32,000 nt of DNA from an uncultured Bacilli bacterium (GCA_944358535.1 CALVRH010000007.1:1-32000); one strand, 5' to 3'. Positions 1,401 through 28,377 are shown, counted from the stretch's first letter. The notes: generated from the sequence alone by a model not told the origin. Numbers and translations are program-made.

Positions 1401-1773
1401 AATTACATTCAGTTTCACAAGTTTCAACATATTCATATTTATATTGATTATTTGAACTATCATAAGTGATTCTAACGCAACCATCCATTTTTTCATTGGT
1501 AGTTGGATCAATGACATCTTTATCACTTTCTAAGTATCCTTCAGTTTTTAGGAAATCTACTTTTACGTCACATGCTGTTTCCGGTAGTTTTCGCCAGTTA
1601 TCGGTTCCCCATCTTTCGGCAGCATTAATAAGAGTATTTTTTTGCTCTTCTAGGGTATCTTCTTTAGAATTATTGATAAGTCCAACAATGGTTGGGACAG
1701 CAATAGCTGCGAGTATTCCTAAGATAACGATTACAGCAAGTAATTCGATGAGTGTAAAAGCTTTATTTTTCAT
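1399..1773 (-). CDS. Prepilin-type N-terminal cleavage/methylation domain protein (type IV pilin / ComGC-like pseudopilin), orphan
   Basis: The N-terminus MKNKAFTLIELLAVIVILGILAAIAVP is a class III signal peptide with the FTLIE motif. The C-terminal globular part contains 4 Cys. SD is AGGTGA. Confidence 0.8.
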   Translation of the reverse strand: MKNKAFTLIELLAVIVILGILAAIAVPTIVGLINNSKEDTLEEQKNTLINAAERWGTDNWRKLPETACDVKVDFLKTEGYLESDKDVIDPTTNEKMDGCVRITYDSSNNQYKYEYVETCETECN

Positions 1774-1790
1774 AGTATCACCTAGTTTAA

Positions 1791-1819
1791 ATTATACGTT
1801 CTTTAAGTTTAAGTGTCAA
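1791..1819 (-). promoter_or_regulatory. Consensus sigma-A promoter of the pilin gene
   Basis: The minus strand reads TTGACA, a 17-nt spacer, then TATAAT. The SD and ATG follow about 20 nt downstream. Confidence 0.65.
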
Positions 1820-1829
1820 TAATGAAGGG

Positions 1830-1870
1830 TTACATTCTCCAAAGATTCCTTTATTTTGACAATGTGTAAA
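1830..1870 (-). repeat. Conserved ~42-nt promoter-upstream element, copy A
   Basis: The minus strand TTTACACATTGTCAAAATAAAGGAATCTTTGGAGAATGTAA matches 15734-15775 (plus strand). The match includes an identical 19-mer, AGGAATCTTTGGAGAATGT. Confidence 0.7.
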
Positions 1871-1939
1871 TTAACATTTTGATGCTGTTAAAATATTTTA
1901 TTTTAAATAATAATGAATTAAATAAATGCTTGTTATGAT

Positions 1940-1968
1940 TTGCCTTTATGTTAAAAATGTGTTATGAT
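1940..1968 (+). promoter_or_regulatory. Sigma-A promoter with extended -10
   Basis: TTGCCT, a 17-nt spacer, then TATGAT preceded by TGT. Confidence 0.45.
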
Positions 1969-1974
1969 GTATAT

Positions 1975-2088
1975 AGATGAAGGAAACTTCATACAATATT
2001 AAAGGAACATTCAATAGCTCATTGTTGGATGTATCAAAAAGTTTTTTGGACACCTAAATCATGGTAGATGAGTTAGGTGCCTTTTTCT
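1975..2088 (+). ncRNA. Candidate ~110-nt small RNA (antitoxin-like), convergent with the small ORF 2087-2170
   Basis: Bounded by the promoter at 1940-1968 and the hairpin plus T-run at 2048-2088. There is no SD-preceded ORF inside. Confidence 0.25.
2048..2088. terminator. Terminator hairpin shared by convergent units
   Basis: Stem cacctaa (2051-2057) / ttaggtg (2073-2079) is followed by cctttttc on plus. An A/T-rich tract on the other side gives weaker minus-strand termination. Confidence 0.5.
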
Positions 2089-2170
2089 ATTTAAATAATA
2101 TAATGAATATTAAAATAAATAGAAGGTAGATCATGGCATAAAGAGCTTTTTCTCTTTTTGTCACAAGCAT
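2087..2170 (-). CDS. Candidate 27-aa hydrophobic peptide (type I toxin-like), MLVTKREKALYAMIYLLFILIFIILFK
   Basis: Not in the ORF track because it is under 60 aa. GGAGGTG lies immediately upstream, so the ATG spacing is only 2 nt, while an in-frame GTG sits 8 nt from the SD. A 9-bp hairpin (2176-2198) overlaps the SD, and a promoter lies at 2231-2259. Confidence 0.3.
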   Translation of the reverse strand: MLVTKREKALYAMIYLLFILIFIILFK

Positions 2171-2230
2171 CACCTCCAATTCTAAATTATAGAATTGGTG
2201 CACCCAACTTATTAAATGTTCCTTAAATCG

Positions 2231-2259
2231 ATTATAACATAATGTTATTAGATGCACAA
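2231..2259 (-). promoter_or_regulatory. Sigma-A promoter facing the small hydrophobic ORF
   Basis: The minus strand reads TTGTGC, a 17-nt spacer, then TATAAT with an extended TGT. Confidence 0.45.
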
Positions 2260-2301
2260 TATTTTTTTACATTTTGTTATTTTTTTGGGATGTGATAATA
2301 T

Positions 2302-3408
2302 ATGAAAAGTGTTGGAATAATTTGTGAGTATAACCCATTTCATAATGGACATCTATATCATATAAATAAGGTTAAAAAAATGTATCCTGATTATGCTGTT
2401 ATTGCTGTTGTTAATGGTAACTTTACTCAAAGAGGTGATATCAGTTTAATAGATAAGTGGGAAAAAACTAAAGTTGCTTTGAATTATGTTGATTTAGTTG
2501 TTGAACTACCTTTTGTATTTGGAACGCAGGCTGCTGATATTTTTACTAAAGGTGGATGTGATATTTTAAATGCTTTAAAGGTGGATGCCTTTGTTTTTGG
2601 TAGTGAAAGTGCGGATTTAGAAAAGCTTAATGAAATAGTTAAAGTTCAAGAAAGTGCAGAATATAGTAATATAATTAAAACTTATTTAGATGAAGGGTTT
2701 AACTACCCTACTAGTTTAGCTAAAGCATTAAAAGATTTTGGTATTACTTTAGAAAATAATCCTAATGATTTACTAGGAATTGGTTATATTAGAAATTTAA
2801 AAAATGTAGAAATTAGGGCTATTAAAAGAACTAATGATTATCATAGTTATAAATTACAAAAAATTTCTAGTGCGACTAGCATTAGAGAGGCTTTAAAAAA
2901 AGGAACTGATGTTAGAGAGTATGTTCCTAAAGAGAGTTATGAGAGTTTTAGTGATTTACATTTTTGGGATAATTATTTTGATTTACTTAAATATAAAATA
3001 ATAAGTACAGATGATTTAAGTATTTATCAAACTGTAGATGAAGGTATTGAAAATAGGATTAAGAAAAACATTTTAAAAGCTAATAATATTGAGGAATTAA
3101 TTAATTTAGTTAAGTCAAAAAGATATACATATAATAAACTTAAGAGAATGTTTTTACACATTTTATGTTCGTTTACAAAGGAAGAAGCTAAAAGGTGTGA
3201 GAATATTCAATATATTAGAGTTTTAGGTTTTAATGATAAAGGTAGACATTATTTAAATAGTATTAAGAAAGAATGTAAGTTACCAATTATTACTAAGTAT
3301 GATGATGATTTTGAAATGATGAGAATAGAAAATAGAGTAAGTAATATTTATAATATTAAAAAAGATGACTTTTTAGAGGAATATAAGCATAAGCCTATAA
3401 TCCATTAG
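2302..3408 (+). CDS. tmcAL: tRNA(Met) cytidine acetate ligase (UPF0348/YlbM-type nucleotidyltransferase)
   Basis: The N-terminus GIICEYNPFHNGHLYHI carries the HxGH nucleotidyltransferase motif. Length and layout are typical of the YlbM/TmcAL family. Confidence 0.75.
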   Translation: MKSVGIICEYNPFHNGHLYHINKVKKMYPDYAVIAVVNGNFTQRGDISLIDKWEKTKVALNYVDLVVELPFVFGTQAADIFTKGGCDILNALKVDAFVFGSESADLEKLNEIVKVQESAEYSNIIKTYLDEGFNYPTSLAKALKDFGITLENNPNDLLGIGYIRNLKNVEIRAIKRTNDYHSYKLQKISSATSIREALKKGTDVREYVPKESYESFSDLHFWDNYFDLLKYKIISTDDLSIYQTVDEGIENRIKKNILKANNIEELINLVKSKRYTYNKLKRMFLHILCSFTKEEAKRCENIQYIRVLGFNDKGRHYLNSIKKECKLPIITKYDDDFEMMRIENRVSNIYNIKKDDFLEEYKHKPIIH

Positions 3409-6142: not shown

Positions 6143-7693
6143 TTATCTTGTTTTTCCTTTTGAATTACTACTTATTTCATTTGAATATAATCTATCAAGT
6201 TGTTCAGTATCTATGTATATTACTTTCCCACCTGGCGGATTAATTTCTATTCTACCGAAAACTATCCATATTGCATCTATTGGTGTACTTGGCATATCTG
6301 CATCTCCATCTGTAAAAATTATCTTATTTTCGACTCTTCTTGTAAATGCATTGATAGCCGCATCAAAGTTAGTTCCACCACCACCATAAAATTCCAAATT
6401 GTCAATATCGGATACATCTTTAATTTCAGTAAAACCATAAAACTTTGTATCAAAACATCCAACTTTAACTTTAGATGTTTGTAATATATTTTTACACTCT
6501 CTTAAAAAGTTTCTAAGTAGTGTTTCATCTATAGAACCACTCGTATCTAATACGATTTCTGTCTCTGGTCTTGGCATTTCCTCTAAATATGCTGTTACAA
6601 CACCATCTTCTATGCCCGCATTTTGATATGACCAGTCAACATCATATTTAACAGCTTCTTTTAATAATCTTCTCCAATCAATAAATGGTTCAGCTGTTCC
6701 AATGTCAGTTATATTTCTTATTTCACTATTTGTAGTGTTTCCATAACCATGTGACTCGCTGGCTAGTGCTTTTCTTAATTCTTCTAGTTGTTTTTTTCTT
6801 AATATTTTATTTTGTTTAAATGTTTCTTTTTCTCCTAATTCTGTTAACTTTTTTATTTCTTCATTCTTTTTCTTTTCTTGCTCTTTATTTTGGTTTTCAT
6901 CAAGTTGTTGTAGCTGTGATTGTTGTTCTTTTTTCTTATCAAACATTTTACTTGATTTATCTAACAAGCTTTGTTTATCTTCACCCTTGTCGTTAGATTG
7001 TCCTGTATTAGATTGTGTTTGTTCTTCTTGATGTCTCTTTTCTACTGCTTTATCCCACATAGAATGAGTGTCATGCCCAACATCTTGTTGTTTTTCTTCT
7101 TTCTGTAAATCTTCACCAGAGCCACCACAACTTTGCTCTTTTGATTGTTTATTTTGTTCTTGTGAACTTTCACTACTAGAGCTGCTTTGTTGTTGAAATT
7201 GTGATTGCTGTTCATTGTTTCCATTTTGTCCATTACCACCACTTTGTTGTTGGCTACCTTTTTGATTTTTACCATTGCCCTGTCCATTTGGTTGTTGCTG
7301 TTGTGTCTTTTCCTCTAAAAGTTTTTTGTACATTTCTTCTGCATCATAATTAATCGCCTCTGGAATATCAACACCACCTTCAACTATAGATAATCCATCT
7401 TGTTTTAGAAAAGCATTTATAACCGAATCAGTTGCTATATTCCATAAATCTTTATCTTTACCTTCACTTCTAAAAATGTGATCAAATGCTATATGACATA
7501 TTTCGTGAGCAAAAATAAATGTTTGCTCTTCATCTGTAATAGATTCAATAAAGTTAGGATTATAATAAATGGTTTTGCCATCTGTTCCTGCTGTCCCTAC
7601 TGCTGGTTCAGCAATAAAGTTAGAATTAGCTACTACACTTCCAAAGAAAGGATACTTAACTAATAATCTTCTTTTAATAGAGTCTACATTCAT
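6143..7693 (-). CDS. Zn-metallopeptidase (DUF2201_N-like, HExxH), low-complexity linker, vWA (DUF2201-like) protein
   Basis: FIFAHEICHIAFDH (HExxH, 7493-7507) with a downstream NIATDSVIN block. Residues ~127-300 are Q/N/S/E/K-rich. The C-terminal vWA has a DTSGS MIDAS motif (6533-6547), GGGGTNF and IFTDGDA. Confidence 0.85.
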   Translation of the reverse strand: MNVDSIKRRLLVKYPFFGSVVANSNFIAEPAVGTAGTDGKTIYYNPNFIESITDEEQTFIFAHEICHIAFDHIFRSEGKDKDLWNIATDSVINAFLKQDGLSIVEGGVDIPEAINYDAEEMYKKLLEEKTQQQQPNGQGNGKNQKGSQQQSGGNGQNGNNEQQSQFQQQSSSSSESSQEQNKQSKEQSCGGSGEDLQKEEKQQDVGHDTHSMWDKAVEKRHQEEQTQSNTGQSNDKGEDKQSLLDKSSKMFDKKKEQQSQLQQLDENQNKEQEKKKNEEIKKLTELGEKETFKQNKILRKKQLEELRKALASESHGYGNTTNSEIRNITDIGTAEPFIDWRRLLKEAVKYDVDWSYQNAGIEDGVVTAYLEEMPRPETEIVLDTSGSIDETLLRNFLRECKNILQTSKVKVGCFDTKFYGFTEIKDVSDIDNLEFYGGGGTNFDAAINAFTRRVENKIIFTDGDADMPSTPIDAIWIVFGRIEINPPGGKVIYIDTEQLDRLYSNEISSNSKGKTR

Positions 7694-7702
7694 AAGTTAT
7701 CC

Positions 7703-8104
7703 TTAAATTTGTGCTAATAATGAATATACTTCTTCATTTATTTTATTAGCAGTTAAATCGGAACAAGTAACAATAACCAAACAATTTTTAGGTAATTCAA
7801 ATGTACTAACTTTTTTATATTTAAGTATCTCAATAAATTTAGTTTGTTCTTCTAATGGTGTTTCATTTATATTTTCAATTACTAAAACTGACGTGTTTGT
7901 TTTACTTCTATCTAATAATTCTTTATACCAAAGTGGAGGACAAAAATCTGTATTTTCATAATGCCCATTTAATTCAGATCTATCAATATTTGATTTTATA
8001 ATAACTGAATTATTAAAAGAATTAGAAGGTATGTTTTGAACCAATAATGGAGATACTCCAGATTTAATATAATTTTCTAATAAATTTAATCTTTCTTTAT
8101 TCAT
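7703..8104 (-). CDS. Degenerate AAA_5 core paralogue (pseudo-ATPase) of the upstream ATPase
   Basis: Aligns by eye with residues ~305-455 of the 8101-10035 product. Walker A GRSSEGKS becomes QNIPSNSF, PPTWY matches PPLWY, and Walker B IIFFDELTNA becomes VLVIENINET. LPPNARIVAAGN matches LPKNCLVIVTCS. There is a 4-nt ATGA overlap with the upstream gene. Confidence 0.7.
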   Translation of the reverse strand: MNKERLNLLENYIKSGVSPLLVQNIPSNSFNNSVIIKSNIDRSELNGHYENTDFCPPLWYKELLDRSKTNTSVLVIENINETPLEEQTKFIEILKYKKVSTFELPKNCLVIVTCSDLTANKINEEVYSLLAQI

Positions 8105-10035
8105 CTTCTTATTCCTCCTTGTGATAAGCTATCAGCCATTTGTACTTCTGCAAGGCGTTCTAATCTTCTCTCATCTCCATGTGCCCACATAGATTCAAAT
8201 GCAGCTCTTGGTTCTGCACCTACTTGCTTCATAAAATCTCTTACTACTTCAAAATGCTCATCATCAACAGAGGATAATCCAACTGCTGTTGCAAATTTTT
8301 GTGATACATCCATTTCTAAATCTCTACTTGAATAATTATGATTAATTACATCTTCAACACTTATTACTTGCCTACTTGCAAATGCTGTAAAATCCTTTGT
8401 CAAATCTTCTCCTATTAATGCTCTTAACATTTCTGGCTGTTTAGTTTTATAAAGTAATTTAGATGCCATTTCCCATTTTCTTGGGTCTGCATTAGGTTTA
8501 TCTCCAGTATACGGAGTTCTTAAGACATCATGACCACTATAAGACTTATATGCTATGTAAGCATATATAGAAGGATGAATTTTCGCCTCTGATTCTCCCT
8601 CTTTATAATCTAATCTTTCGTATTTTTCTTTAGGTGTTGATGCCCATTTTAACCAGCTATCTACTGTTGTATGAATATAAACATGAGCAAATCTGTTGAA
8701 TAATGGTTCTGCCATTTGATTTGCCGCTAATGAATCATTTAAATCGTTTCCAGCAGCAACTATTCTTGCATTAGGTGGTAACTTCCATTTACCATTTACT
8801 TCACCATCTAATACTATGTTAAATGCCATACCTTGTATGGAAGGAAGTGCATTTGTAAGTTCATCAAAGAATATAATATGAATTTTATCTGGTTCAGCTT
8901 CACATTTTTCTTTTACTTTTGAATACCATGTTGGTGGTACATCAATCATTTCTCCTGTTGCAGCGTTATAAACACTCTTTCCATTTAAGCTATCAGGAGT
9001 TGCATTTCTCATATATATTATTTCTAAGTCTGGATCTAATTGTTTTACTCTTGCTGATTTACCTTCACTTGATCTACCATGTAAGAATACTGGAACATTA
9101 CTTTCTACTGCTCCTCTTATTATATCTTCTTCTGATACTCCATCAAAATTGAAGCCATAAGGGTTTTGTTTTCTTACCGGTTCTTTTCCTTCTAAATTTT
9201 GGGTTTGTTCTACTGATGTAGTTGGTGAATAAACTCTGTCAGTTACTATTTCTTTTGAGAAATAATTATCTATAAATTGTTTTATATCAGTTCTATCAAA
9301 ATCGCCTTTGTAATCTCTACGATTTTTAAATTGTACTCCAGAAAAAATTAATTTCTTCGAAAGTGCTATATTTGCTCTTTCATCTACTAGCCAAGTTATT
9401 GGTTCAACACGAACCCAATATGTATTTCCTGATTGAATTGTTCTACCATCAGACAAAACCTCTCCATCACAGTTTGAATCACCAACAAAACGAATATATT
9501 TACTTCCATTATATTCATATTCAGTATGAGCTCTAGGCCTAAAATTTGTATCATAATCTTGGTATCTAACTGAATCTGTTGTATAATTTTTGCCTGTAGT
9601 TCTTAAACTTCCATTATTGTATGCTCTTTCTAATTCACGAGAATAATTTTCATCAACAATTGTTTGTGGATATTCACCATAAAGGGTTTCCTTAATTCCA
9701 CTGGCACCTCTCACTCCGTTCGAGGAGACCATTTGGATTGAAGAGTAAAGTAAAGCTGGGCGAGCCCCACCAAAGCGCTTATAAACATTGAACCAACTTC
9801 TAGTACCATTTCGGCTAACGACGCGCGCGTCATTGTTATAAGGTGTTTTTGTCCACCACCAACCAGTTCTATCTTTTCTAGTATTTCCTTCACTAGTATA
9901 ATCATCTGATGATACATAACCACCTAATAAAATAGAAAAATCAGTTATAGCACATTTTGTACCATATCTACTTATTATATCTAACTGATTAATTCCAAAT
10001 ATTTGTTCAACAGTTAAAAATGTAAAGTTATTCAT
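8101..10035 (-). CDS. Lectin-like (DUF6273-like) N-terminal module fused to an AAA_5 / MoxR-NorQ-class ATPase
   Basis: Walker A GRSSEGKS (9055-9078), Walker B HIIFFDE (D391-E392 at 8860-8865), sensor ARIVAAGN and EPLFNRFAHVYI. The N-terminus has GWWWTKTP...GGARPALLYSS, the motif shared with 27460-28377. Confidence 0.85.
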   Translation of the reverse strand: MNNFTFLTVEQIFGINQLDIISRYGTKCAITDFSILLGGYVSSDDYTSEGNTRKDRTGWWWTKTPYNNDARVVSRNGTRSWFNVYKRFGGARPALLYSSIQMVSSNGVRGASGIKETLYGEYPQTIVDENYSRELERAYNNGSLRTTGKNYTTDSVRYQDYDTNFRPRAHTEYEYNGSKYIRFVGDSNCDGEVLSDGRTIQSGNTYWVRVEPITWLVDERANIALSKKLIFSGVQFKNRRDYKGDFDRTDIKQFIDNYFSKEIVTDRVYSPTTSVEQTQNLEGKEPVRKQNPYGFNFDGVSEEDIIRGAVESNVPVFLHGRSSEGKSARVKQLDPDLEIIYMRNATPDSLNGKSVYNAATGEMIDVPPTWYSKVKEKCEAEPDKIHIIFFDELTNALPSIQGMAFNIVLDGEVNGKWKLPPNARIVAAGNDLNDSLAANQMAEPLFNRFAHVYIHTTVDSWLKWASTPKEKYERLDYKEGESEAKIHPSIYAYIAYKSYSGHDVLRTPYTGDKPNADPRKWEMASKLLYKTKQPEMLRALIGEDLTKDFTAFASRQVISVEDVINHNYSSRDLEMDVSQKFATAVGLSSVDDEHFEVVRDFMKQVGAEPRAAFESMWAHGDERRLERLAEVQMADSLSQGGIRR

Positions 10036-10142: not shown

Positions 10143-10149
10143 GTTGTTA

Positions 10150-10346
10150 GTAAATCAATGACAAAGAATAGTAATATAAATGCTATTTTATAAGAGAGTT
10201 AGTGGTTGGTGCGAACTAATAATGGCTTTATATGAATCTACTTTGGAGAGAAGTTAAAAACTTCCGGGATGACCGTTATCATAATTAAGCAGCCGTATAG
10301 GATGGTACCGTATTACATATACTCCTAACATAGGGCTGTTTTTTCT
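10150..10346 (+). promoter_or_regulatory. T-box riboswitch leader, serine specifier (TCT)
   Basis: AGAGAG bulge (10193-10198) and a specifier loop GAA-TCT-A (TCT at 10237-10239). F-box CCGTTA (10273-10278), T-box core GGATGGTACCG (~10300-10310), then a terminator arm and T-run (10339-10346). Confidence 0.8.
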
Positions 10347-10876: not shown

Positions 10877-12163
10877 ATGATAGATATTAAGTTAATTAGA
10901 GAAAATAAAGATTTAGTTAAGGAGAATATTAAGAAAAAATTTCAAGATAAAAAATTACCTTTAGTAGATGAAGTATATGAACTTGATATTAAGTGCCGAG
11001 AGGCTAAGGGTAAAGGTGACGAACTTAGGGCATTAAAAAATGAAAAAAGCGCTTTAATTGGCGCTTTAATGCGCGAAGGTAAAAAAGAAGAGGCTGAAAA
11101 AGTTAAGGCTGAAGTTAGTAAATATGGCGATGAGATTGAAAGACTAGGTAAAGAGGAAGAAGAATTACGTGAGAAAATATATGCAGATATGATGGTTATT
11201 CCAAATATTATGGATTCATCTGTGCCTATTGGTGAGGATGACAGCAAGAATGTGGAATTGGAAAAATTTGGAGAGCCTATTATTCCTTCTTTTGAGGTTC
11301 CACACCATGCGGATATTTGTGCGAGATTAAATGGTTTAGATAAGGAAAGTGCGGGAAGAACAAGTGGTAATGGTTTTTACTATTTGATGGGAGATGTGGC
11401 TAGGCTACATTCTGCAATGCTTAGTTATGCTAGAGATTTTATGATAGATAAAGGGTTTACTTACTGCATTCCCCCATTTATGATTAGAAGTGATGTTGTA
11501 AATGGTGTTATGAGTTTTGAGGAAATGGATGCAATGATGTATAAAATTGAAGGTGAAGATTTATATTTGATTGGTACATCTGAACACTCTATGATTGGTA
11601 AATTTCAAGGACAAATTATTAAAGAGGAAGAACTACCTATTACACTTACTAGTTACTCACCTTGTTTTAGAAAAGAAGTTGGAGCTCATGGAATTGAGGA
11701 ACGTGGACTTTATAGAGTTCATCAATTTGAAAAACAAGAGATGGTAGTTTTGTGTAAACCTGAAGATGGTATGAAGTTTTATGATAAAATGTGGAAGTAT
11801 ACTGTGGAATTTTTTAGAAGTTTAAATGTTCCTGTTAGAACACTAGAGTGCTGCAGTGGTGATTTAGCTGATTTGAAGGTTAAATCATGTGATGTTGAGG
11901 CATTCAGCCCTAGACAAAATAAGTATTTTGAAGTTGGATCTTGTTCAATTTTAGGTGATGCGCAAGCTAGAAGACTTGGAATACGTATGAAAACTAAAAA
12001 TGGTAATGAATATGTGACTACTTTAAATAATACAGTTCTTGCTACTCCAAGAGGTTTAATTGCCTTTTTGGAAAACAATGTAAATGAGGATGGAAGTGTT
12101 AATATTCCAGAAGCATTAAGGCCTTATATGGGAGGTATTGAGAAATTAGTTCCTAAAGACTGA
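10877..12163 (+). CDS. serS: Seryl-tRNA synthetase
   Basis: N-terminal coiled-coil arm followed by class II core blocks (FRKEVGAHG..., YRVHQFEKQE, NNTVLATPR). Confidence 0.95.
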   Translation: MIDIKLIRENKDLVKENIKKKFQDKKLPLVDEVYELDIKCREAKGKGDELRALKNEKSALIGALMREGKKEEAEKVKAEVSKYGDEIERLGKEEEELREKIYADMMVIPNIMDSSVPIGEDDSKNVELEKFGEPIIPSFEVPHHADICARLNGLDKESAGRTSGNGFYYLMGDVARLHSAMLSYARDFMIDKGFTYCIPPFMIRSDVVNGVMSFEEMDAMMYKIEGEDLYLIGTSEHSMIGKFQGQIIKEEELPITLTSYSPCFRKEVGAHGIEERGLYRVHQFEKQEMVVLCKPEDGMKFYDKMWKYTVEFFRSLNVPVRTLECCSGDLADLKVKSCDVEAFSPRQNKYFEVGSCSILGDAQARRLGIRMKTKNGNEYVTTLNNTVLATPRGLIAFLENNVNEDGSVNIPEALRPYMGGIEKLVPKD

Positions 12164-15935: not shown

Positions 15936-16180
15936 CCATAGACCAGTATCGGATAGTCGCTACCCTAATTTATATTATTTATTTACCAAAATTTATTGAT
16001 TAAATAGATTGCTCTAGATATAACATGTATTTTTCTAAACCTTTGAACATTATATTAACTGCTGCATTATAATCACGTTCATGCTCTGTATGACATACTG
16101 GACATTCCCATTTCCTTATACTTAAATTTTTTACTTCCTTATTTTGATAATTACAAACATTGCAAAGTTGACTACTTGGA
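15936..16180 (-). ncRNA. Putative omega-RNA of TnpB copy 2
   Basis: The conserved RE block ends at 15956. The predicted guide is the minus-strand TATCCGATACTGGTCTATGG (15936-15955). The 5' limit is a guess. Confidence 0.3.
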
Positions 16181-17223
16181 TAATATCTGTCTATTTGTAT
16201 TAGTTTTTTATTATTAAAGTTAGCTTTATATTTAAGTACTCTGATAATTTCTGAAATAGGATTTTCGTTTAAGCCTTTAGCTACATAGTGATTCTTCTGC
16301 ATACTTCTTACATCTAAATCTTCAGTTACTATAATGTCATTTTCGTTTATTAATTTATTTGTTATATCATGTATCATATGTTTTCTTGCATTTCTTATCT
16401 TTTGATATAATCTTTGGATTTTTAGTTTCATCTTATATCTATTTTTACTTCCTTTTTTACATCTAGAAAGTCCTCTTTGCAGGCCTACCATTCTTTTAGT
16501 GTTTAGTTTAATGGTATTTTCTATTTTCTCATTAAATGATGTTACTATTAAATCTTTTATTCCTAAATCTATGCCGATTATGCTTGTTGGAACAAAAGAT
16601 GGTCTTATTAGTTCTTCTTCTATTAAAACACTTACATAATATTTACCGGCATCTTTTTTAATTACTGCACTTTTAATCTCACCAGGCACTACTTCTTTAT
16701 TTCTATATCCTCTTATCTTTACTTCTTTTAATTTTGGTAAAGTGATTGTTTTATTTTTTAAATCTAGTTTAATACTGTTATAATTATTTCCTTTATAACT
16801 ACTTTTAATATTATTGGTTTTATAACTTTCATGTACTCCTTTTGCTTTAAATCTAGGATAACCGTTTCCATTAAAAAATCTTTTATAAGCATCTTCTAAA
16901 TTAAATAGACTATTTCGAAGTGCGCAGCTATCTACTTCTTTCAAAAACGGATACTCTTTAGAAAGTGATGGTATTAATTTCATTTGGTCATAAGTTGATT
17001 TACTTTTGCCAGTTTTTTTATATTCTTTTATTTTATCATCCAAAAAATAATTATATATAAATCTAGAGCAGCCAATAGTTTTATTAATTAATTCTTCTTG
17101 CTCTTTAGTTGGATACATTCTAAATACATAGCCTTTTAATATTTGCATACCATCACCTTCAATCTTTATTGCAATCAATATATCACGAATAGTTATATTT
17201 GTAAATAACTTTTTGCAAACTTT
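15956..17223 (-). mobile_element. IS200/IS605-family tnpB-only element, copy 2
   Basis: See copy 1. The two copies are diverged, with many substitutions, so they are not a recent duplication. Confidence 0.6.
16000..17148 (-). CDS. tnpB: TnpB RNA-guided endonuclease, copy 2
   Basis: Roughly nine in ten residues match copy 1 by eye. The D/E/D and Zn-finger motifs are intact (IVTEDLDV). The start is ATG 17148, after GAAGGTGA. Confidence 0.85.
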   Translation of the reverse strand: MQILKGYVFRMYPTKEQEELINKTIGCSRFIYNYFLDDKIKEYKKTGKSKSTYDQMKLIPSLSKEYPFLKEVDSCALRNSLFNLEDAYKRFFNGNGYPRFKAKGVHESYKTNNIKSSYKGNNYNSIKLDLKNKTITLPKLKEVKIRGYRNKEVVPGEIKSAVIKKDAGKYYVSVLIEEELIRPSFVPTSIIGIDLGIKDLIVTSFNEKIENTIKLNTKRMVGLQRGLSRCKKGSKNRYKMKLKIQRLYQKIRNARKHMIHDITNKLINENDIIVTEDLDVRSMQKNHYVAKGLNENPISEIIRVLKYKANFNNKKLIQIDRYYPSSQLCNVCNYQNKEVKNLSIRKWECPVCHTEHERDYNAAVNIMFKGLEKYMLYLEQSI

Positions 17224-17655: not shown

Positions 17656-18594
17656 ATGGTTGAAAAAGTGAAGAAATTTTTTAAAAGAAATATTTTAGGA
17701 ATTATTATTGGGGACTTATATTTGGAAGTATAGGTGTTTATGCGGCAACTTACTTTCCCTATTATGATGTAACATATGACAATAGTTCAAGTGGACTTAA
17801 AAGCACTGATGTACAGGGCGCTATTGATGAGCTTTATGGAGTATGTACACATGATGAAACTGGTCCTTCAGTAGGTAATCAATTATTAGATGAAGTAAAT
17901 ATAGTAACATCTGGTGATGGATTATAAAGATGAATATGAAGATAGATATTTTTATAAAGGAGCCAACCCTAATAATTATGTTAATTTTAATAATAGTTTA
18001 TGGAGAATTATTTCAATCGAAAATGATGGAACTATAAAAATCATGAAAAACGAAAATATAGGAGAAATGGTATGGGATACATCAGTGGGAGTATATTGGG
18101 GAACAGCTTCTTTAAATGTTTATTTGAACAATTCTTTTTTAGCAACTTTATCAGATACAAGTAAAATCGTATCTAAAAATTTTAGTATAGGTGAAGTAAC
18201 GCTTCTTAATAGTAGTTTAAAAAGTCAAGTCGACGAAGAAAATGCCACTTTATTTAATGCAAAAGTTGGAATAATAACAGTTTCTGAATTTTTAAGAAGT
18301 AATAGTAATATTAGTCAGTGTTCTACTTTTTTATTAAATTCAGATAATAGGAAAATATGTGTAAATACTAGTTGGATAACTAATACATTATCTTTCGATA
18401 ATTTTTGGACAATTACTCCAGCAAAGAATAGTTATAATGATCCTTCTGTATATCCTATTGGTTCAAACGGTTATATAGATTATATTAGTAATTCAAGTGC
18501 TAAATACCATGTATTTCCTGTTATTTATCTTTCATCTACTGCCAAAGTTACCAGCGGGGACGGTTCAGAAAATAATCCTTATATCATTGAATAA
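17656..18594 (+). pseudogene. Frameshifted paralogue of the 27460-28377 membrane-anchored DUF6273-like protein
   Basis: Three collinear segments match the intact paralogue. Frame 1 runs 17656-17733 (MVEKVKKFF...). A shifted frame runs 17712-17927 (GLIFGSIGVYAATYFPYYDVTYDNSSSGLKSTDVQGAIDELYGVCT...). Frame 1 resumes at 17914-18594. Confidence 0.75.
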
Positions 18595-27417: not shown

Positions 27418-27423
27418 ACATTA

Positions 27424-27449
27424 TAAAAACAAGCTATTGTTTTAGCTTG
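27424..27449 (-). terminator. Terminator of the 27460-28377 gene
   Basis: A 7-bp stem caagcta / tagcttg followed on the minus strand by TTTTT. Confidence 0.5.
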
Positions 27450-27459
27450 CATATAAAGT

Positions 27460-28377
27460 TTATTCAATTTGATATGGGTTATTTTGGCTTCCATCTCCTC
27501 CAGTGATTTGGACTTCAGATGAAAGAGTTATGGCAGGCCTGACCGCATGGTTCGTAATGTTCGCGTCGTTGTTGTAGGGGTTGCCGTTAGAGTGCACGTA
27601 GAACACGTGGTTAGAGTCGCCGGCAATGGACGACAAGGTCCACCAATAATTACTTGAATCATACATCCACGTGGTATTTTTACATGTACTATAATTACTA
27701 TTAAAAGTACTATATGTTTTACAGTTTGAATTTGAATTTGTTCTTAAATATTCGCTTACTGTTGGTAATGCTATTTTTCCATTCCATGTTTTACTATTTT
27801 CATCATTGACTTGATCGGCTAAATCATTATTATAAACTGTTACTGCACCTATACTATAATCAGATGCAACTATTTGACTTTGGGCTTCACTACTTAAACT
27901 ATTTAAATATGTTCCATTTAAATATGTATTTAAACTGGCTGGTCTAGCCCAATTATTTGAATTAGATGTATCCCATGCTAAAGAATTGCTAGTATTTATA
28001 TTTGCTGTTTTCATTATCTTTATAGTTCCATCACAACCTACAGAAATAATTCTCCAGCCTGCAGTTTCTCCATTAAAGGTTACATAATTATTTGGGTTTG
28101 CTCCCGTAAAGAAATACCTACATTCATATGGGTCTTTTTCTAACCCATTATCTTCTATTATTTGTTCTCCTGGTGGCTTAGTTGTACATACTCCATATAA
28201 TTCATCTATTGCTTCTTGTACATCTGTACTTTCAAGTCCACTCACAGTATTATCATATGTCACATCTTCACTTGGAAAATATGTTGCTGCTATTACACTT
28301 GCTGCTCCACAAATTATTAAACCTGTTATAAATCCTGGTAAATATCCAATCATAATTTTCTTTATTTTTTCTTTCAT
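27460..28377 (-). CDS. Membrane-anchored DUF6273-like (lectin-fold-like, WW...VRPA) protein with a VR-like C-terminal patch
   Basis: N-terminal TM anchor, then the TYFPSEDVTYDNTVSGLESTDVQEAIDELYGVC motif. The body (GWRIISV..., WARPASLNTYLNG, ALPTVSEYL) is followed by YWWTLSS...AVRPAITL and a GDGSQNNPYQIE tail. SD is GGAGGA. Confidence 0.8.
   Translation of the reverse strand: MKEKIKKIMIGYLPGFITGLIICGAASVIAATYFPSEDVTYDNTVSGLESTDVQEAIDELYGVCTTKPPGEQIIEDNGLEKDPYECRYFFTGANPNNYVTFNGETAGWRIISVGCDGTIKIMKTANINTSNSLAWDTSNSNNWARPASLNTYLNGTYLNSLSSEAQSQIVASDYSIGAVTVYNNDLADQVNDENSKTWNGKIALPTVSEYLRTNSNSNCKTYSTFNSNYSTCKNTTWMYDSSNYWWTLSSIAGDSNHVFYVHSNGNPYNNDANITNHAVRPAITLSSEVQITGGDGSQNNPYQIE

Follow-up and report, generated by a model that had tools for sequence, protein, structure and literature searches.

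The stretch of DNA analysed here, called the window throughout, is a 32,000-nt sequence from an uncultured Bacilli bacterium (GCA_944358535.1 CALVRH010000007.1:1-32000). Its host is a small-genome, low-GC gut bacterium with a relative filed as 'uncultured Tenericutes'. Upstream of prfA the window carries, on the minus strand, a gene for a small protein with a DUF6273 domain, and the 3' end of this gene contains a short patch of high G+C content and unusual codon choice. A preliminary description of the window had proposed that this patch is the variable region (VR) in a lectin-fold target gene of a diversity-generating retroelement (DGR). That proposal is supported by the pattern of variation among homologues, by retroelement cassettes in related genomes and by a sibling VR at a second locus, and we consider it very probable that the patch is the VR of a DGR target, a membrane-anchored lectin-like protein, the retroelement itself lying outside the window.

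The codons of the patch, on the minus strand of the open reading frame (ORF) 27460..28377, are exactly as first written down. The encoded protein has a hydrophobic stretch near its N-terminus, which points to a surface location, and it matches Pfam PF19789 (DUF6273) over residues 130-286 with 40.7 bits against a curated cut-off of 23.5 (E 3e-10). The VR, residues 247-282, lies at the C-terminal end of this domain. An AlphaFold model based on 47 homologues has a mean pLDDT of 80.5, with values above 90 over most of residues 80-305 and below 50 for residues 1-43. The top match of the model in the PDB by Foldseek was 9qa6, the IgA peptidase of Thomasclavelia ramosa (E 2.8e-8 over 289 aligned columns, query-normalised TM score 0.48, identity 18%), and there were weak structural matches to Lcl (8q4e) and to classical C-type lectins. 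The T. ramosa IgA peptidase's N-terminal domain is itself C-type-lectin-like and akin to the Legionella Lcl C-terminal domain (PMC12237041). The predicted ectodomain finds its closest structural counterpart in this domain; unlike the target protein, however, the T. ramosa enzyme is a large metallopeptidase that is not a known DGR target and has no VR signature. The Pfam and structural results agree with the earlier assignment of a lectin-like domain with the patch at its C-terminus, and 'lectin-like surface protein' is a reasonable label. At E <= 1e-5, 1959 homologues of the protein were found; a tblastn search of it against 50,697 phage records gave no match.

The patch had been placed at 27531-27646. 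Our recount agrees that 65 of these 116 nt are G or C (56.0%), set against a background of 29.7%, the mean of the window. This is the GC maximum of all 32 kb: among sliding 116-nt segments (mean 0.297, sd 0.059) the peak of 0.560 starts at 27529, and only one further place, 9714-9831, reaches at least 0.50. The binomial tail for at least 65 G+C in 116 at p=0.297 is 3e-9. The codons are unusual as well. As had been noted, Asn is encoded in the patch by AAC only and elsewhere in the gene mostly by AAT (7 AAC and 0 AAT compared with 3 AAC and 26 AAT; Fisher p=1.4e-5), and AAC accounts for 29% of Asn codons across 13 long ORFs of the window. Within the patch the G+C content at third codon positions (GC3) reaches 84%; in the remainder of the gene it is 13%. 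Homology to the template repeats (TRs) of relatives, described below, covers 27532-27639 (ACC TTG TCG ... CCT GCC), so the limits first given were right to a few bases. This stretch consists of NNC codons that alternate with a fixed scaffold of TCT, GTG TTC, GTG, GGC, GCG, ACG and GCG GTC AGG CCT GCC. The patch does span the WW...VRPA region and does end in GCGGTCAGGCCTGCC, which contains the palindrome CAGGCCTG.

A degenerate paralogue of the target gene lies about midway along the window (Table 1). Its VR-equivalent, 18403-18522, has 29% GC with three AAT codons and one AAC. The ordinary AT-rich codons that had been ascribed to it are indeed present, and it serves as an internal control that has not been templated.

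Table 1. Positions of the target gene, its parts and the related elements; coordinates refer to the window unless a contig of a relative (L number) is named
Feature	Position	Strand	Description
DGR target gene	27460..28377	-	305 aa; basic N-terminus, one hydrophobic anchor helix, predicted extracytoplasmic DUF6273 / C-type-lectin-like domain
N-terminal membrane anchor	28282..28350	-	codons 10-32 (IGYLPGFITGLIICGAASVIAAT), hydrophobic, after a Lys-rich start; predicted topology
Variable region (VR)	27532..27639	-	108 nt, codons 247-282 (TLSSIAGDSNHVFYVHSNGNPYNNDANITNHAVRPA), 56.5% GC
GC-rich VR 3' end	27532..27546	-	GCGGTCAGGCCTGCC, encodes AVRPA; IMH-like (see text)
Recombination tract (putative)	28063..28291	-	gene nt 87-315; 48 of the 55 differences from L005 in this gene
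Degenerate paralogue of target gene	17656..18594	+	two frameshifts
Complete cis DGR of L151	L151: VR 274-384; TR 588-695; MutS_I 982-1389; Avd 1383-1733; RT 1708-2847		
Post-TR stem-loop	L151:707-760; L131:8990-9045; L126:355-410; L127:133-190		

Variable regions and retroelement cassettes in relatives

In an alignment of the 47 homologues nearly all of the sequence is conserved save for an interleaved pattern, WWTLSPxSxxSxxVFxVxSxGxVxxxxAxxxxxAVRPA. We set 32 unique 37-aa VRs of homologues against the codons of the TR found on contig L131. The mean column entropy was 2.9 bits at the 17 columns that have an AAY codon in the TR, compared with 0.52 at the 17 others. Lys, Glu, Gln, Met and Trp made up only 7 of the 544 residues at the AAY columns (1.3%), compared with 15.8% in the rest of these proteins. 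Such a scarcity is expected when the first two bases of AAC or AAT are mutated, because only NNC and NNT codons can then arise. The column that corresponds to ACG in the TR mostly holds Thr, Ala, Pro or Ser (NCG). Variation among the related VRs is concentrated on the codons that are AAY in the TR.

A scan of the GTDB representative genomes for the VR scaffold gave one match, in 'uncultured Tenericutes bacterium UMGS841' (L126); the source genome of the window is not among these representatives, since its own VR would have fitted the pattern. Beyond the 3' end of a DUF6273 gene, L126 has a non-coding repeat rich in Asn codons and then genes for a 132-aa MutS-domain-I protein, a 114-aa bAvd-like protein and a 364-aa reverse transcriptase (RT) with the motifs IGNLTSQ and YMDD. 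The Pfam matches of the cassette are MutS_I (E 1.5e-7), bAvd and RVT_1, and the same order after the TR is found on L126, L127, L131, L151 and L152, with MutS_I of 132-136 aa, bAvd of 114-116 aa and RVT_1 of 364-386 aa; no HRDC gene is present in the cassettes. The Avd matches NF033474 and phrog_3206. The best PDB relative of the RT is 8ub7_A (328 aa, E 3.6e-33, compared with 4e-10 for group II intron RTs), a chain that we take to be bRT of Bordetella phage BPP-1.

Following the RT homologues gave TRs on L131, L132 and L151; most of the other contigs end at the TR or close to it. On L131 and L132 the cassette lies between tig and priA, and the intact TR abuts a truncated TnpB. L151 carries a complete cis DGR in which VR and TR differ at 15 of the 36 TR adenines and at none of the 72 other bases (p 6e-9), apart from one extra codon. 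The contig L152, which comes from a strain of UMGS841's species, unites the target and its VR with the TR and the cassette; here the mismatches fall on 18 of 31 TR adenines and on 3 of 77 other bases (p 1e-9). The cassettes in the relatives are genuine DGRs and belong to the MutS-like ('MSL') type. Directly after the TR there is a stem-loop (CTCTAAAACACTATGGRTTATGAAC...TGGTCATAATGAAAAGATTAGAG; CTATGGRTTATGAACYAAYRTGGTCATAATGAAAAGAT), which is kept in all four cassettes that were aligned; the four sequences show almost no covariation. It may be a priming or spacer element of the DGR RNA.

The AAY-rich TRs that had been predicted as the type of template are thus present in close relatives, beside MutS-like, Avd and RT genes. 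In BLASTN the TR of L151 matches the window only at the VR (27636-27524, 79% identity, E 1e-21), and over the last 45 nt of the VR the two differ at 4 of 18 adenines and at none of the 27 other bases. The terminal GCGGTCAGGCCTGCC is shared, without change, by the VRs of the window and of L151 and by the L151 TR; the TR remnant of L127 departs from it by one base (GTT for GTC). Directly after this GC-rich end VR and TR part, with ATAACTCTTTC in the former and AACTCTCTAAAAC in the latter. The preliminary description had likened the GC-rich end to an element of the kind called initiation of mutagenic homing (IMH), and its being shared with the L151 TR up to the point of divergence fits such a boundary. 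By analogy with the DGR of Bordetella phage BPP-1, we presume that it is IMH-like and the start site of cDNA integration.

A second VR comes from a homologue of the target (P0020) that adjoins uvrC on the 59.9-kb contig L153, from sample ERZ28614151. From that sample also comes strain L005, whose sequence shares 99.65% identity with the window across 14.5 kb. Considering the common sample and the near-identical middle part of the two genes, both loci, beside prfA and beside uvrC, are likely to belong to one genome. The VR of P0020 (L153:10721-10819) has the private scaffold of the window VR, namely TCC, GCC GGC and codons ending in C at places where T stands in the L151 and L131 TRs. Of 96 aligned nt, 19 differ between the two VRs; 18 of these 19 differences are in codon positions 1-2, and 16-17 of them fall on an A of the L151 and L131 TRs (p 3e-6 / 3e-7). 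The scaffold positions of the two are identical in all cases but one. In the simplest reading, both VRs would have been written from one lineage-specific TR, so far unseen. That TR would read ACC TTG TCG TCC AAY GCC GGC AAC TCT AAC AAC GTG TTC WAC GTG AAC WAT AAC GGC AAC MAC WAC AAC AAC AAC GCG AAC AAT ACG AAC AAT GCG, or, written as a pattern with A permitted at any position, ACCTTGTCGTCCAAYGCCGGCAACTCTAACAACGTGTTCWACGTGAACWATAACGGCAACMACWACAACAACAACGCGAACAATACGAACAATGCGGTC.

We suggest the following course of events. The TR would lie elsewhere in the genome, beside a cassette of MutS-like, Avd and RT genes, and would be copied into RNA, the reverse transcription of which would misincorporate bases opposite adenines. 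The resulting cDNA would replace the VR, beginning at the GC-rich 3' end (GCGGTCAGGCCTGCC), and the VR would take on the composition of the TR, that is, AAC codons among G/C-rich scaffold codons at about 47% GC, with the GC content rising as adenines are replaced. The TR-derived make-up and the loss of adenines together would explain the GC content and the codon composition of the patch. The seven AAC codons would be TR codons spared from mutation, and CAC, TAC, GAC, GGC and CCC would be mutated AAC. The TR would act in trans on at least two targets, the gene beside prfA and the paralogue beside uvrC, and the last DUF6273 loops, from WW to VRPA, would form the ligand-binding face. We infer that the genome of the window still carries the TR and the RT, and we infer likewise the direction and start of cDNA integration, the exposure of the protein at the surface and the existence of a biological ligand.

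Origin and present state of the variable region of the window

Several results weigh against a DGR target with a retroelement elsewhere in the same genome. Within its 32 kb the window contains no second copy of the patch that could be a TR and no RT, Avd or MutS-like gene, as the preliminary description had said for RT, Avd and TR; copy search found none, and a tblastn search of the window with the RT, Avd and MutS-like proteins of L151 gave nothing better than E 0.2. No recovered TR is the template of the window VR over its full length. The closest, that of L151, departs from the 108-nt VR at 10 of its adenines and at 12 other bases (p 0.14), and for the TR of L131 the numbers are 12 and 17. 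With 10 mismatches at A and 32 at non-A, the UMGS841 TR (L126) was rejected as template. Scaffold scans of viral and JGI metagenome sequences gave no match; their patterns fixed TCN at the 17th VR codon, where the cognate TR proposed above has WAT, and were hence blind to that TR, and the GTDB pattern was built with the same fixed codon. Viral contigs were also scanned for the L151-type TR 3' end and for the proposed cognate TR, with no match. Downstream of the VR, the DNA fold of 27455-27550(-) has -5.9 kcal/mol (z 0.66) with no hairpin 3' of the VR, and no inverted repeat of at least 8 nt was found there. A hairpin or cruciform at this place is a trait of BPP-1-type targets and is not universal. 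Cassettes in sister lineages have often decayed: only about 30 nt of the TR are left in L127 and L128, with three tyrosine-recombinase genes upstream in L128; in L135 the TR and the post-TR stem-loop are deleted and the RT is frameshifted; and in L149 the RT is truncated. Finally, the VR is identical in four assemblies that stem from different samples, the window, L141 (BRZ_AD), L145 (BRZ_AQ) and L142 (ONAT22-1), and another VR allele is identical in L140 and L146, which come from different cohorts and whose genes differ elsewhere.

These last observations bring in the alternative that survives best. The VR may be an orphan, written by a DGR but now held by a strain with no working one, either because TR and RT were lost or inactivated or because the allele was imported through homologous recombination from a strain with a working DGR, and it would then be a static, inherited binding site; we regard this as possible, though distinctly the less likely account. 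Strain-level hypervariability of the patch, which the preliminary description had proposed to look for, is not seen at the consensus level. The four identical VRs persist even though the 5' part of the gene was replaced by recombination in one of the assemblies: L142 carries a recombination tract of 48 differences there and keeps the identical VR; the VR of L005, with the tract at 28063-28291, is identical to that of the window. The alleles of L140 and L146 share their VR and differ elsewhere in the gene, and the L153 VR is identical in three samples. Furthermore, in ten strains with an identical RF1 protein (L138-L147) the locus upstream of prfA, a fixed chromosomal site, has several deeply divergent mosaic alleles of 302-317 aa beside a prfA that does not differ in its protein, which means that recombination moves whole alleles at this locus. 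The target locus is an allele-shuffling hotspot independent of the VR, and such recombination, taken together with the repeated decay of cassettes in sister lineages, is what makes an orphan VR conceivable. The pseudogenised paralogue with its fully AT-rich VR-equivalent shows that loci of this kind do decay.

The VR itself, however, has not undergone AT-biased erosion, with a GC3 of 84% in a window of 29.7% GC, and its scaffold matches that of L153 as given above. It follows that the last templating was recent on a mutational time scale. The cohorts in question also contain intact cis DGRs, as L151 from a BRZ sample shows, and the identical assemblies may represent one recent clone, in which a consensus would hide minority variants. 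A more specific proposal is that ready-made VR alleles, produced by MutS-like DGRs in some members of this gut lineage, are passed between strains and between paralogous loci by homologous recombination and that the strain of the window has no working DGR. We consider this rather unlikely; if true, DGR-made receptor diversity would be a resource shared by the population while the retroelement is repeatedly lost. The contrast between diverse alleles on the one hand and identical VRs across samples with repeated cassette decay on the other bears on how often such gut systems are active. As a side observation, the clustered differences make the tract 28063-28291 look like a patch of gene conversion or recombination; it also shows a similarity of about 77% with the pseudogene paralogue (17742-17849).

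The preliminary description had named, as the alternative to a DGR, a tract acquired from a homologue of higher GC content by recombination or horizontal gene transfer, in which case no retroelement would be involved and the composition would reflect the codon usage of the donor. The locus is demonstrably recombinogenic, and a TR of the exact scaffold was found neither in the window nor in the public scans. Nevertheless, the same GC-rich periodicity of NNC codons and scaffold occurs in homologues from other genomes of about 28% GC (the second gene of L002, L148, L151 and L153), and non-coding TRs of the same scaffold adjoin RT genes. In addition, the variation avoids Lys, Glu, Gln, Met and Trp, and the differences from the sibling VR coincide with TR adenines in 16-17 of 19 cases. 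As a source of the composition such a tract is strongly disfavoured, and we hold it to be highly improbable. Least probable of all is selection for a binding loop rich in Asn, Tyr, Ser and Gly combined with a local codon preference and no templating, since, although lectin-like and antibody-like binding loops are often rich in Tyr, Ser, Asn and Gly, it leaves unexplained both the synonymous choices (AAC only, GTG, GCG, ACG, GGC; GC3 84% compared with 13%) and the nucleotide identity of the scaffold with the non-coding TRs of relatives. The pattern at synonymous sites in practice refutes it. That the patch is itself a TR was ruled out, given that it lies in frame inside a conserved ORF with no adjacent RT.

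Comparison with known systems

DUF6273 has been described as a DGR target in phages, in the tentaclins of nd4/nd12, where it was called C-lectin-like (PMC10743442). The Faecalibacterium prophages Lelie, CP11, Roos and Pioen have DUF6273 targets with the VR at the C-terminal end of the domain (PMC11792537). The gene of the window is thus like the phage targets in its Pfam family and, as in the Faecalibacterium prophages, in its C-terminal VR, and among phage records the L151 RT is closest to that of phage nd12 (35.8% identity). Unlike the tail or receptor-binding proteins of phages, however, the target of the window is a small, anchored, chromosomal protein beside housekeeping genes (prfA, uvrC), and the related cassettes, in contrast to those of the phage systems, lie between chromosomal genes (tig ... 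priA) and include a MutS-like gene.

DGRs that contain an MSL gene have been classified as 'Architecture D', which includes the DGR of Legionella pneumophila (Wu et al. 2018, PMC5758913). The cassettes of the relatives, with MutS domain I, Avd and RT and no HRDC gene, fit the description of this class. MSL/Avd/RT cassettes are a known architecture. They differ from Architecture D as described in belonging to a low-GC gut lineage and in having a DUF6273 target. With the BPP-1 system (Mtd/TR/Avd/bRT) they have in common adenine-specific VR/TR mismatches, an AAC-rich TR, Avd, RT homology, a VR at the C-terminus of a C-type-lectin-fold protein and a GC-rich VR 3' end. In contrast to BPP-1, neither a hairpin nor a cruciform was detected 3' of the VR, there is an additional MutS-like gene, the element is chromosomal and it apparently has several targets in trans.

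Chromosomal DGRs with surface proteins as their targets include those of TvpA in Treponema denticola and LdtA in Legionella, lipoproteins with FGE-type or DUF1566-type domains. Like them, the system of the window would be a cellular DGR acting on a surface-anchored lectin-fold protein, but the window target has a transmembrane helix as anchor and a DUF6273 domain, whereas TvpA and LdtA are lipoproteins. Small membrane-anchored DUF6273 lectin-like proteins, with about 2000 homologues in public data, join the cellular targets of DGRs, and the associated chromosomal MutS-like/Avd/RT DGR seems to serve several loci in trans. The distinctive points are the host lineage, the small anchored target, the chromosomal cassette, the apparent trans action and the absence of any hairpin 3' of the VR; the current understanding of DGRs is unchanged by these results. 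They also illustrate that unusual GC content and codon use in raw sequence can correctly point to a DGR target whose retroelement is tens of kilobases distant or sits on a different contig.

Other features of the window

A minus-strand hairpin at 27423-27451 (GCAAGCTA...TAGCTTG), followed by a T-run, lies between prfA and the target gene's stop codon and looks like an intrinsic terminator.

The second stretch of at least 50% GC, 9714-9831 on the minus strand, is inside ORF 8101..10035. It does not look like a current VR, as it lacks the NNC periodicity. Its place is the N-terminal part of a 644-aa protein, which resembles DUF6273 there (WWW...ARPAL; Pfam E 0.006, under threshold) and has the hexapeptide PYNNDA in common with the VR. 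The 644-aa protein contains a Walker-A-like GKS motif, and Pfam matched no ATPase domain in it; we guess that it is an AAA-type ATPase, an assignment that is ours and not a tool result. This ORF belongs to a three-gene block on the minus strand (6143-10035), the other members of which encode a 133-aa protein that matches no family and a DUF2201 metallopeptidase/VWA-like protein of 516 aa with a long low-complexity insert rich in Gln, Ser, Asn, Glu and Lys.

Two copies of an IS605-family OrfB/TnpB gene are present at 119-1372 and 16000-17178, both on the minus strand and 15,881 nt apart. They are 85-100% identical by segment and match HTH_OrfB_IS605, OrfB_IS605 and the Cas12f1-like TNB domain. 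The truncated TnpB that abuts the TR on L131 (8348-8860) is 92% identical to them. About 320 intergenic nt of the window (1950-2267) are 79.7% identical to L131:20611-20929, which comes from a different species; between L131 and L127, two related species that bear the cassette, housekeeping DNA shows about 79% identity. Rfam gave no match for 1950-2267 even at E <= 1, and this stretch may be an undescribed RNA or leader. An ordinary T-box leader (RF00230, 93.5 bits) lies at 10149-10329 on the plus strand, upstream of the gene for seryl-tRNA synthetase (10877..12163).

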